A DNA stretch of 64,000 bases from Escherichia coli (lineage in GTDB: Bacteria > Pseudomonadota > Gammaproteobacteria > Enterobacterales > Enterobacteriaceae), in the NCBI RefSeq assembly GCF_041248615.1, contig NZ_CP158426.1, one strand, 5' to 3'. Below, in pieces: positions 42,001 through 45,000 of this stretch. How positions within the stretch are numbered: the first letter of the stretch is position 1; each line of letters starts with the position of its first letter. The position numbers were made by a program.

Positions 42001-45000
42001 AGCTTTAGCATCAGCTAACTCCTTCGTGTATTTTGCATCGAGCGCAGCAACATCACGCTGACGCATCTGCATGTCAGTAATTGCCGCGTTCGCCAGCTTC
42101 AGTTCTCTGGCATTTTTGTCGCGCTGGGCTTTGTAGGTAATGGCGTTATCACGGTAATGATTAACAGCCCATGACAGGCAGACGATGATGCAGATAACCA
42201 GAGCGGAGATAATCGCGGTGACTCTGCTCATTGCTGACCCCACAAACAGATTTCACGCTCAATCTCACGACGAGTCATGAGACCTTTCCATTGCTTACCG
42301 CCAGCATATGTCCAGCGACGTAGCTGATCACATGCGCCTTTGATATCGCCCTGGTTTATTTTGCGAAGAAGCGTCGATGTTCTGAAATTGCCAGCACCCA
42401 CGTTGTAAACGAATGAGTAAAGAGCGCCGCGCATTGTTTCCGGTATATCGACTTTGATGTACGGGTTAATTTGTCTGGCGACCGTGGCAAGGTCTTTATT
42501 CAGGAGGGCTTTGCATTCTGCTTTGGTATACGTTTTACCGAGCATGATGTCTTTTCCTGTATGCCCGTGACATACAGTCCATACACCAACAATATCTTTG
42601 TATGGTATGTAGCTGACACCTTCCAGACCATCGTTACCACTTGGGCCAGTGATTAACACTGATGCTATAGCAATTGCTCCGCCACCAATAGCAGCAGCAA
42701 CGGCTTTTCGTAATGATGGAGGCATTATTCACCTCTCGCAGCCTTGCGCTTATCTTCTTTAATCTTGAAATAAAGGTTTGTCAGGTACGTCAGCAGGCCA
42801 AATACCAGGCTACCCAGCACACCTATTGCCGCCCACTGTGAGGGCGTGACTTTATCGAGCAACTGTAAAAACCAGTACCCGGCACTACCTGCTGAGGTAC
42901 CATAGGCGACACCCGTTGTTAACTTATCCATGGATTTCATAACCCCACCTCGCAGACAAAGCGGGTGTAAATTAAGGGGATACTACGTATCGCAATAAAG
43001 GCAGAAACGTAACAGATTCGGAGTCAGTGAATAACTCAGGTATTGGGTTATCAGCTAATATCGAGACTCAAAAAATGGAAAAACCCGCTCGACGGCGGGT
43101 TTAAGCTGTGTGACGAAGTAACCACTCTTAACAGCATAACCAATTTTTTACGTACGTAAACTACTAAATGATATTTGTGAGAATGCCACCGAGTGTTCAA
43201 AACACCACCACAAATGCATAAGAAAACTTCAACAAATAACCAGTTAATAATTTCCGATGTTATTTTTAGTTTGTTTAAATTAAGCTAAAGAATTATAGAG
43301 CACTTATAAATAAGTGCCATTAATATAAATTAGCTAATAGATTTATTTTTGTTCAGACAAGAGCCATGAATAGGATTAGATAGAAAAGGTTCAGATAAAA
43401 ATAGAGATCTACTTCACAAATTAAATGAGAAACTAAAACTTACATCTTGAAATAATCACATTGATTAGATGAATATTTATCGCGCAGTGACATCATTTTT
43501 TAATAATAGTTCAAAAAAAGGGCGTACAATGAAAAAATTAACAGTGGCAATTTCTGCTGTAGCTGCATCAGTACTGATGGCGATGTCTGCTCAGGCAGCT
43601 GAAATTTATAATAAAGACAGTAACAAGCTGGATCTATACGGGAAAGTTAATGCCAAGCACTACTTCTCCTCTAATGATGCAGATGATGGTGATACTACTT
43701 ATGCCCGTCTTGGCTTCAAAGGTGAAACCCAAATCAACGATCAACTGACTGGTTTCGGTCAGTGGGAATATGAATTCAAAGGCAACCGTGCTGAATCTCA
43801 AGGTTCTTCCAAAGACAAAACCCGTCTTGCATTTGCAGGCCTGAAATTTGGTGATTACGGCTCAATCGATTACGGCCGTAACTACGGTGTAGCATACGAC
43901 ATCGGTGCGTGGACTGACGTTCTGCCAGAATTCGGTGGTGATACCTGGACCCAAACAGATGTGTTCATGACTGGTCGCACTACTGGTGTTGCAACTTATC
44001 GTAACAACGACTTCTTTGGTCTGGTCGATGGCCTGAACTTTGCTGCTCAGTATCAGGGTAAAAATGACCGCACTGACGTAACTGAAGCCAATGGTGATGG
44101 TTTCGGTTTCTCCACTACTTATGAGTATGAAGGATTCGGCGTGGGTGCAACCTATGCTAAATCAGATCGCACTGACGGTCAGGTCGCCTATGGTAAGAGC
44201 AAATTCAATGCCTCCGGCAAAAATGCGGAAGTATGGGCTGCAGGCCTGAAATATGATGCGAACAATATCTATCTGGCTACCACATATTCTGAAACTCAGA
44301 ATATGACCGTTTTTGGTAATAACCATATTGCAAACAAAGCACAAAACTTTGAAGCAGTAGCACAATATCAGTTTGACTTCGGTCTGCGTCCATCTGTTGC
44401 TTACCTTCAGTCAAAAGGTAAAGACCTTGGTGTTCATGGTGACCGAGACTTAGTCAAGTATGTCGATGTCGGTGCTACTTACTACTTTAATAAAAACATG
44501 TCCACTTTTGTTGATTACAAAATCAACTTAATTGACGATAGTAAGTTTACCAAAACAGCTGGTATTGATACCGACGACATCGTCGCTGTAGGTCTGGTTT
44601 ATCAGTTCTAATCTGACTTACGAAAAAGATATGTTGCGGGAGGCTTTGCCTCCGCAACATATAAGTGGAGCCCTCAAGCCACTTCCTTTAGAAGCACTAC
44701 CTTGCTTCTTACTATATAAACCTTCTGTTATATATTACCCTTTATTTTGGGGGCGTTTCCACGCCCCATTTTTAATAACTTTTAGTAAACAATTGCATAT
44801 CAATTAGAATTATTAGCAACGATATCCATATCTAACCGGATATCTAATGCCATTAACATCCCTTCAATTATGCCCTCAGCCTTCTGTAACCTTTTCCCGA
44901 TATAACCATCCGAGCAGCAATGCTTACTTGCCAGTGACATGAATGTCATACCACATACATAATAATCTACTAATAAATCGTGTAAATCGCTGTTGTTCTT

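Follow-up and report, generated by a model that had tools for sequence, protein, structure and literature searches.

How do a pinholin and a SAR endolysin of phage 21 type come to lie directly beside spanin genes that match those of lambda? The question is raised by a 64,000-nt stretch of the Escherichia coli contig NZ_CP158426.1 (assembly GCF_041248615.1), referred to here as the window. A preliminary description of this DNA had placed such a gene pair at 42228-42940, had noted that neither gene is of the lambda holin or transglycosylase type, and had proposed a recombination junction between R and Rz.

Gene content of the lysis cassette

The first gene of the cassette, S (42725..42940, minus strand), encodes a 71-aa class II holin, or pinholin, of the phage 21 family. 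In the Pfam profile search it matched PF04971 ('Bacteriophage P21 holin S') with E=2e-35 and a score of 121 bits, the cut-off being 26. The protein is identical to EssD of the K-12 prophage DLP12 (71/71 aa, with 97.7% nucleotide identity to essD) and shares 61 of its 71 residues with S21 (76.9% at the nucleotide level). The translation begins MKSMDKL and hence contains the dual-start motif Met1-Lys2-Ser3-Met4, which is predicted to yield a 71-aa antiholin and a 68-aa pinholin. The predicted topology has two TMDs, in which TMD1 is rich in Gly and Ala and TMD2 carries G40, S44 and G48. By homology to S21 (PMC6139136), the holes made by S may be small and heptameric, depolarising the membrane but not letting the endolysin pass.

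The adjacent gene, R (42228..42725, minus strand), encodes a 165-aa R21-type SAR endolysin, a T4-lysozyme-like muramidase (PF00959, 'Phage lysozyme', E=1.3e-45). It is identical to R of phage 21 at all 165 residues and 99.2% identical in nucleotide sequence, and its top matches in the PDB were 3hde and 3hdf (R21) and 4zpu (RrrD), with E=3.7e-112 for 3hde. The catalytic residues E35, D44 and T50 are present. Residues 8-27 form a Gly/Ala-rich N-terminal segment, the same as in R21, and have the features of a weakly hydrophobic SAR segment taking the place of a cleavable signal peptide. Comparison of the S and R proteins with lambda S and lambda R revealed no similarity, so that the assignment of this pair to the phage 21 type, and its exclusion from the lambda type, were both borne out. 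Single-nucleotide differences and a sliding identity profile located an allele switch inside R (42565..42659, minus strand), from DLP12-type on the Q-porin-S side to phage-21-type. This switch is natural and is seen in old and new assemblies alike.

The two spanin genes lie just outside 42228-42940. Rz (41770..42231, minus strand; PF03245, E=2.8e-54), the inner-membrane i-spanin, has a start codon that overlaps the R stop codon in ATGA. The o-spanin lipoprotein gene Rz1 (41829..42011, minus strand; PF06085, E=2.9e-20) is contained entirely within Rz in the +1 frame, and the lipobox of its product reads VVGC, with the cysteine at Cys20. The pair shows the features of the embedded two-component spanins of the lambda family: an N-terminal TMD in the i-spanin, an o-spanin gene embedded in that of its partner, and a lipobox cysteine. 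The expected match to lambda proved exact at the protein level (Rz, 153/153 aa; Rz1, 60/60 aa); the corresponding figures for phage 21 are 149/153 and 59/60. Next in line but on the plus strand is bor (41445..41738; PF06291, E=1.9e-30), which encodes an outer-membrane lipoprotein associated with serum resistance and identical to lambda Bor at 97/97 residues. Endolysins labelled 'GH24' that stand beside the same Rz module elsewhere were considered as a third type and rejected, being of lambda R type (94% aa identity to lambda R).

Upstream of the cassette lie an intact nmpC/lc-type porin gene (43529..44611, plus strand), identified by PF00267 (E=2.2e-151), the RefSeq annotation and alignment with DLP12, and a gene for a quuD-type late antiterminator Q (44800..45183, minus strand; PF06530, E=7.7e-54, and RefSeq annotation). 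Flanked by Q and S but read from the other strand, the porin gene occupies the place it has in modules of the DLP12/PA-2 type. In a promoter and terminator scan, sites were no more numerous than in shuffled sequence.

Taken together, this gene content suggests how the cassette would operate. In a phage-21-like prophage integrated at icd, collinear with phage 21 and carrying sitABCD as cargo, S-R-Rz/Rz1 would be read by late transcription antiterminated by the QuuD-type Q. Translation of S would give the 68-aa pinholin and, from Met1, the 71-aa antiholin, while R would be exported via Sec and, anchored by its N-terminal SAR segment, stay inactive. Triggering of the pinholin would depolarise the inner membrane, R would then be released, refold and degrade the murein, and the Rz/Rz1 spanin complex would finally disrupt the outer membrane. 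These steps are proposed by analogy, on the basis of protein identity to the studied phage 21 proteins (100% for R, 86% for S).

Relationship to phage 21, DLP12 and lambda

The gene calls and the lambda identity are both present in the sequence, far beyond chance. However, the locus as a whole is a lysis cassette of a known and ordinary kind, that of phage-21-like E. coli prophages. Phage 21 (OL657228) aligned with window positions 42941-39872 collinearly and in a single alignment, at 96.7% identity, and was collinear with most of 10609-42941 at 96-99.5%. Gene order (S21-R21-Rz21-Rz1(21)-bor), gene lengths and the S/R and R/Rz (ATGA) overlaps are the same in the two, and the downstream TonB-like gene, cos, the head genes, the icd integration site and the sitABCD cargo are all matched. 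In phage 21 itself, the segment from Rz to bor matches lambda at 96.7% identity, and according to Kongari et al. (2018; PMC6139136) lambda and phage 21 both carry RzRz1 genes and require them. Lambda-family Rz/Rz1 genes following R21 are native to phage 21, and the point at the Rz start codon where similarity to lambda sets in marks an old boundary between modules. Phage 434 and K-12 DLP12 share the S-R-Rz arrangement, and at least 80% of the cassette was found at one place in 1,883 of 5,426 complete E. coli genomes.

Some differences from phage 21 were observed nonetheless. S in the window is the DLP12/PA-2 allele, with 77% nucleotide identity to S21; the upstream region is a QuuD-porin module, whereas phage 21 has Q21 and tRNAs; and the Rz-to-bor segment, as given in the assembly, is the lambda allele, 94.4% identical to phage 21 over 844 bp. 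Resemblance to DLP12 (essD-rrrD-rzpD/rzoD-borD), the source of the gene names used by RefSeq for the window genes and the site of a functionally studied lysis module (PMC7918800), is closest in the rusA-ylcG-quuD-porin-S module, which matched at ~97%; the porin gene is disrupted by IS5 in K-12 but intact in the window. In contrast, R and the 5' half of Rz diverge from DLP12 by 3-10%, and the region downstream of bor is 21-type, with the TonB-like gene, where DLP12 has ybcV-ybcW. With the lambda S-R-Rz-Rz1-bor region, the window shares Rz, Rz1, bor and the next 57 bp base for base, including the embedding of Rz1 in Rz. The window's S and R are not related to the lambda genes of those names, which encode a class I holin (PF05106) and a transglycosylase, respectively, and both flanks of the shared tract are non-homologous to lambda.

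These comparisons bear on the proposed R/Rz junction in two ways. When aligned with lambda, the cassette shows the anticipated breakpoint exactly at the R-stop/Rz-start ATGA, and to that extent the proposal stands. The reading of the locus as a notable hybrid of phage 21 and lambda is undercut because phage 21 itself has this architecture. Indeed, alignment with phage 21 placed the break not between R and Rz but at the S/R end (nucleotide identities of 77% for S, 99.2% for R and 98.7% for Rz), and derivation of the whole cassette from a single known phage, the finding that would speak against a junction, largely applies, that phage being phage 21.

The lambda-identical tract in related assemblies

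What distinguishes the window is the exactness of the lambda allele. The tract comprising Rz, Rz1, bor and 57 bp beyond (41388..42231) is identical to lambda 45966-46809 at 844/844 positions. A four-way alignment placed its left edge in the 4-nt ATGA at 42228..42231 and its right edge in the 8-nt AATTAAAC at 41388..41395 (both minus strand), each motif being common to lambda-type and 21-type sequences. Markers that set the tract apart from the 21-type allele run from 42227 to 41396; at positions lower than 41388, 21-type sequence resumes and homology to lambda is over. Comparison with the prophage of strain NRZ14408 over 18 kb revealed 43 differences, all inside 41396-42227, and the two sequences are identical over 29997-64000 except in the tract, differing further to the left. 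The NRZ14408 version of the island matches phage 21 at 840 of 841 positions. Between sister prophages with 100% identical flanks, divergence is 5.5% in the tract and reaches 34% over 83 nt at the 5' end of bor. In the sister prophages of NRZ14408, CFT073 (2002) and 536 (2006), iss is annotated at the position of bor.

Assemblies of the same strain made at different times proved informative. The 2002 and 2024 assemblies of CFT073 differ at 43 positions over 13 kb, and the 2006 and 2024 assemblies of 536 at 42 positions over 12.1 kb, in both cases exclusively in the tract. The older, independent Sanger assemblies of both strains carry the phage-21/iss-type allele there, while the 2024 version of 536 is identical to lambda at 844/844 positions. 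The same two motifs, ATGA and AATTAAAC, bound the tract in CFT073 and 536 as they do in the window. The 2024 CFT073 assembly also contains IS3 and IS21 insertions that are absent from the window. The tract of BAA-2469, a strain whose R is of lambda type, reaches to about lambda 45511 (~1,300 bp) with its right edge unchanged.

We then surveyed the distribution of the chimeric junction. The exact full-length form occurred in four of 5,426 complete E. coli genomes, all of the accession batch NZ_CP158435-46; the junction was seen in unrelated strains and on three different prophage backbones, and only within a single submission batch. No matches were obtained among the 50,697 phage records of INPHARED, in IMG/VR, in JGI metagenomes or in the GTDB species-representative genomes. 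In contrast, the natural 21-type junction was found at no fewer than 120 loci in IMG/VR (120 of the 120 matches listed). Lambda homology elsewhere in the prophage was not rewritten, with 97.3% identity in O-P-ren-ninB and 98.1% and 97.7% in the terminase-portal region (Nu1-A-W-B, lambda 1-5543).

Origin of the lambda identity

From these results, it is very probable that the lambda-identical tract is Nanopore lambda control DNA (DCS), written into the assembly by polishing, and not the product of natural recombination. Lambda DNA serves as Nanopore control and carrier DNA, and the DCS makes up ~1% of reads (PMC12862388); its nature and extent have been documented, as has its occurrence in GenBank as fake plasmids (10.1101/2023.08.05.552089). 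In RefSeq E. coli assemblies we observed DCS contigs as 3.5-kb 'replicons'. The start of the DCS, as we take it to be, maps to lambda 45042, so that its lambda part presumably extends from 45042 to ~48488, between artificial ends that we assume to be a 65-nt leader beginning GCCATCAGATTGTGTTTGTTAGTCGCT and a 48-nt tail. A 3.6-kb control amplicon of this kind, supplied in ONT ligation kits and taken from the right end of lambda (~45042-48488), includes S, R, Rz, Rz1 and bor. If DCS reads were left in the data, they would align, soft-clipped, to the sole homologous prophage stretch; where they outnumbered the genuine reads, polishing would rewrite the stretch to lambda up to the limits of homology, and the real allele would be the phage-21/iss type of the sister prophages.

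Several observations agree with what DCS overwriting would produce. The tract (lambda 45966-46809) lies inside the DCS range and is 100% identical to the lambda reference; it fills the local homology to the DCS, drawn from the last 3.5 kb of lambda, to its limits, with a length that varies with context; and lambda homology beyond the DCS range is unchanged between old and new assemblies. The case is direct for CFT073 and 536 and rests on the pattern for BAA-2469; for the window we infer the same origin. The true sequence of the tract is probably the phage-21/iss-type allele, which is ~94.5% identical to the one given. Position within the DCS range is as in known spike-in carry-over (ONT DCS, Illumina PhiX); unlike such carry-over, the chromosomal homologue would here have been overwritten in place with no extra contig. 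It counts against a DCS origin that a search of RefSeq E. coli assemblies found no separate DCS contig listed for the 2024 batch. Our literature search returned neither a paper nor sequencing metadata for that batch, and the published accounts it found described contamination at the contig level, none of them in-place overwriting by the DCS.

An alternative, which we consider unlikely, is genuine recent recombination, in which a lambda-like or an unsampled 21-like donor replaced Rz-Rz1-bor by gene conversion to leave a natural hybrid cassette. The replacement is discrete, with flanks otherwise identical, both edges lie in microhomologies, the prophage encodes Bet/Exo/Gam, and the lambda Rz-bor allele does occur in nature. 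Mosaicism is a well-known trait of lambdoid phages, and the same Rz module is found elsewhere joined to a lambda-type R and another holin. However, the tract is missing from the independent assemblies of CFT073 (2002) and 536 (2006), and its confinement to one batch, across unrelated strains and three backbones, together with its absence from four independent collections, is the opposite of what a natural recombinant should show, namely reproducibility within a strain and presence in independent collections. A lambda donor would moreover require repeated crossovers confined to the outermost 4 nt and 8 nt of the homology, for which a rough chance estimate is ~(4/844) x (8/844) per event; ordinary homologous recombination with such a donor is unlikely with crossovers so restricted. 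The length of the BAA-2469 tract also follows DCS homology. Were the tract real, a lambda-lineage phage would have very recently converted the whole homologous island in a uropathogenic E. coli prophage through junctions of 4-8 nt of microhomology, a scenario to which we give slightly less credence still; annealing of the Red/Beta type, with a donor strand whose homology ends there, would fit, and the virulence marker iss would have been swapped for bor.

It is less likely again that the lambda sequence came from another source, such as the whole 48.5-kb lambda DNA used as control or carrier, a lambda lysogen present as a contaminant, or read correction with lambda as the reference. Any of these would account for the same lack of reproducibility and the same batch effect, and the use of lambda as Nanopore control and carrier makes the first of them plausible in itself. 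Whole-lambda reads should nevertheless overwrite O-P-ren-ninB and Nu1-A-W-B as well. We reject whole-lambda contamination because these other lambda-homologous regions are untouched, at 97-98% identity, and only homology within ~45.0-48.5 kb is affected. Vertical descent from a phage-21-type ancestor, with the lambda match reflecting strong conservation, gains something from the single collinear alignment with phage 21 and from spanins that differ by just 1-4 residues between phage 21 and lambda, but can hardly be entertained, as divergence of 5.5% in the tract and 34% at the 5' end of bor beside 100% identical flanks cannot arise in this way. DCS overwriting is therefore the reading that we retain, and with the lambda-exact allele not reproduced in same-strain assemblies, the notion of a recombinant of phage 21 and lambda falls away on this count also.

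Biologically the cassette is of minor interest, being a textbook phage 21 system found in roughly one in three complete E. coli genomes. The consequences of the tract concern data quality: lambda control reads acting on a homologous prophage segment can generate a mosaic junction that looks clean. In the 2024 assemblies of CFT073, 536, ATCC 25922 and BAA-2469, the virulence-associated annotation changes from iss to bor, and the RzpD protein is altered, as is the endolysin in BAA-2469. A warning is useful because iss has been turned into bor, and tracts overwritten in this manner would mislead both studies of phage mosaicism and virulence genotyping. Screening for tracts of 100% lambda identity that fall within lambda 45.0-48.5 kb and end at the limits of homology would flag such cases.

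Lysis genes and their phage 21 counterparts

An ORF listing combined with a Pfam scan placed four lysis genes on the minus strand: S (42940–42725, 71 aa; PF04971 'P21 holin S', E=2e-35), R (42725–42228, 165 aa; PF00959, E=1.3e-45), Rz (42231–41770, 153 aa; PF03245, E=2.8e-54) and, inside Rz, Rz1 (42011–41829, 60 aa; PF06085, E=2.9e-20). The bor gene follows on the plus strand (41445–41738, 97 aa; PF06291, E=1.9e-30). The R protein is identical to that of phage 21 at 165/165 residues, and its best-matching solved structures are R21 (3hde, 3hdf) and RrrD (4zpu). S matches K-12 EssD at 71/71 positions and S21 at 61/71, and retains the dual start Met1-Lys2-Ser3-Met4. 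Comparison with lambda S and R revealed no resemblance for either protein, and Rz, Rz1 and Bor each match the lambda protein at 100% identity. The preliminary description, which paired a 21-type S and R with lambda-matching spanins, was therefore correct on both Pfam and protein identity, the spanins lying just outside the interval 42228–42940 to which it referred. If the cassette works as its phage 21 homologue does, S, R, Rz and Rz1 would be expressed by late transcription that depends on Q. The inner membrane would accumulate the S68 pinholin, counteracted by the S71 antiholin, while R would be exported and its SAR segment would keep it inactive. Once triggered, the pinholin would collapse the membrane potential, releasing and activating R to degrade the murein; disruption of the outer membrane by the Rz–Rz1 spanin complex would come last. 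From the opposite strand, the lysogen is likewise expected to express Bor (or Iss), an outer-membrane lipoprotein.

The same description also proposed a phage 21/lambda hybrid recombined between R and Rz. Judged by its gene families, the cassette is no unusual hybrid. Phage 21 (OL657228) aligns with window positions 42941–39872 in one collinear stretch (96.7% identity), the literature assigns RzRz1 to the lysis systems of phage 21 and lambda alike (PMC6139136), and the S-R-Rz-bor order is common to phage 434, DLP12 (the K-12 cryptic prophage) and many other phages. The cassette is already known and very common: of 5,426 complete E. coli genomes, 1,883 carry it as a collinear block covering 80% or more of its length. 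Nucleotide identity to phage 21 is 76.9% for S, 99.2% for R, 98.7% for Rz and 93.5% for bor, which puts the visible break at the S end rather than at the R/Rz junction. The rusA-quuD-porin-S module is of the DLP12 type, and an allele switch was located inside R, at 42659–42565: upstream (5' R, S, porin, quuD and rusA) the sequence is DLP12/PA-2-type, downstream phage-21-type. This switch is natural. Also upstream of the cassette lie rusA, the quuD-type Q gene (44800–45183) and, between Q and S, an nmpC/lc-type porin gene (43529–44611, plus strand), which is intact in the window but disrupted by IS5 in K-12. On the late strand, a terminator-like hairpin with a trailing T-run (43081–43102, minus) lies approximately 140 nt upstream of S.

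The whole surrounding element (10609–62612) is a phage-21-like prophage at icd, with an icd 3' duplicate and the sitABCD iron/manganese transporter as cargo. Phage 21 matches most of it at 96–99.5%, and the matching part takes in the icd fragment, sitABCD, tail, head and cos. The int/xis of the prophage are 97% identical to those of phage 21, and 10609–15862 is 99.5% identical to phage 21 27550–22297.

A lambda-identical tract from Rz to bor

BLAST against lambda gave a single island in the region, window 42231–41388, identical at 844/844 positions to lambda 45966–46809. On the left it ends at ATGA, the overlap of the R stop and Rz start codons, and on the right at the 8-nt sequence AATTAAAC, 57 bp past bor; on both sides, lambda is unrelated to the window. 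In phage 21 itself, the segment from Rz to bor shares 96.7% identity with lambda, and this homology is bounded by the same two points. The boundary with lambda at R/Rz is an old module boundary and a shared one. The NRZ14408 prophage is identical to window 29997–48000 except for 43 differences, all at 41396–42227 within the tract, and its own island, annotated rzpD and iss, is 840/841 identical to that of phage 21. Taken at face value this contrast looks like strong evidence for the recent allelic replacement that the hybrid proposal implied. The gene calls and the sharp lambda breakpoint at R/Rz stand, but the hybrid proposal finds only partial support: the arrangement is phage 21's own, and the perfect lambda identity bounded at that point is most probably a sequencing-control artefact.

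Independent assemblies and the origin of the tract

The right junction, in which the lambda allele of bor meets a 21-type flank, is present at full length in only four of the 5,426 complete genomes: CFT073, 536, ATCC 25922 and ATCC BAA-2469, all from one accession batch (NZ_CP158435-46, 2024). None of 50,697 phage records contained it, and an exact-pattern scan of IMG/VR, JGI metagenomes and species-representative genomes found no chimeric junction. A degenerate pattern accepting both alleles matched at least 120 IMG/VR loci, and 120/120 among the matches listed were 21-type. Independent assemblies were compared for CFT073 and 536. The 2002 CFT073 assembly (NC_004431.1) and its 2024 counterpart show 43 differences over 13 kb, and the 2006 assembly of 536 (NC_008253.1) shows 42 over 12.1 kb against that of 2024; in both comparisons, every difference falls inside the tract. 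The 21/iss-type allele is the one present in the older assemblies, and the 2024 tract of 536 is 844/844 identical to lambda. Lambda bor thus stands where the older assemblies annotate iss, and the RzpD protein accession has also changed; the 2024 assemblies of ATCC 25922 and BAA-2469 likewise carry lambda bor.

The Oxford Nanopore control strand (DCS), supplied in ligation kits, is a 3.6-kb amplicon of the lambda 3' end (3,560 nt, of which 65 and 48 at the two ends are artificial; 10.1101/2023.08.05.552089; PMC12862388). It makes up about 1% of reads (PMC12862388) and is a known contaminant, deposited as 'plasmids' (10.1101/2023.08.05.552089). Two RefSeq E. coli 'replicons', NZ_CP145514.1 (3,561 bp) and NZ_CP139847.1 (3,472 bp), carry sequence matching it, artificial 65-nt leader included, so control DNA was deposited within complete genomes. 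What we take to be the DCS start sequence maps to lambda 45042. If DCS reads were unfiltered, or their own contig discarded before polishing, they would align, soft-clipped, to the sole homologous stretch, where a 3.6-kb amplicon at this read share would be in several-fold excess over genomic reads. Consensus polishing could then rewrite the stretch to lambda as far as homology extends. Such overwriting would account for the perfect identity, the edges at the homology limits, the batch effect, the context-dependent length and the immunity of other lambda-like regions. The tract tracks homology to the right end of lambda alone. In BAA-2469, which has a lambda-type endolysin, the lambda-identical stretch grows to approximately 1,300 bp (lambda ~45511–46809) and stops at the same right edge. 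Homology to other parts of lambda keeps its differences in the same assemblies (O-P-ren-ninB, 97.3%; terminase-portal, 98.1% and 97.7%). Natural conversion to the lambda allele appears very improbable, as exchange with a lambda donor would have to cross over no more than 4 nt from one end of the homology and 8 nt from the other, and to do so repeatedly on several different prophage backbones. For the window itself, we infer control-strand overwriting from the identical behaviour of the four assemblies. Biological interest is low, but users should be warned that the change from iss to bor would affect virulence genotyping on iss.

Short homology and lambda-type endolysins

Within the DCS range, a 112-bp stretch at 41154–41264, 83–84% identical to lambda 46865–46974 and to DLP12, is untouched in both the window and BAA-2469, consistent with its being too short and divergent to draw control reads. 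The BAA-2469 endolysin (WP_370216162.1; NZ_CP158435.1, 5767–6243 of the locus) matches lambda at 100% from around base 18 to its end, whereas a difference of about 6% of nucleotides is usual for natural relatives of this R type. Its protein accession is brand-new, and it is probably an assembly-specific chimeric protein. In strain 114, a lambda-R-type endolysin (1028–1504 of the locus), 94% identical to lambda R in amino acids and with no Pfam match, occurs together with a LydA-type holin (PF16083) and the same Rz-bor module. PGAP names lambda-R-type transglycosylases 'glycoside hydrolase family 24 protein' in many RefSeq E. coli records.
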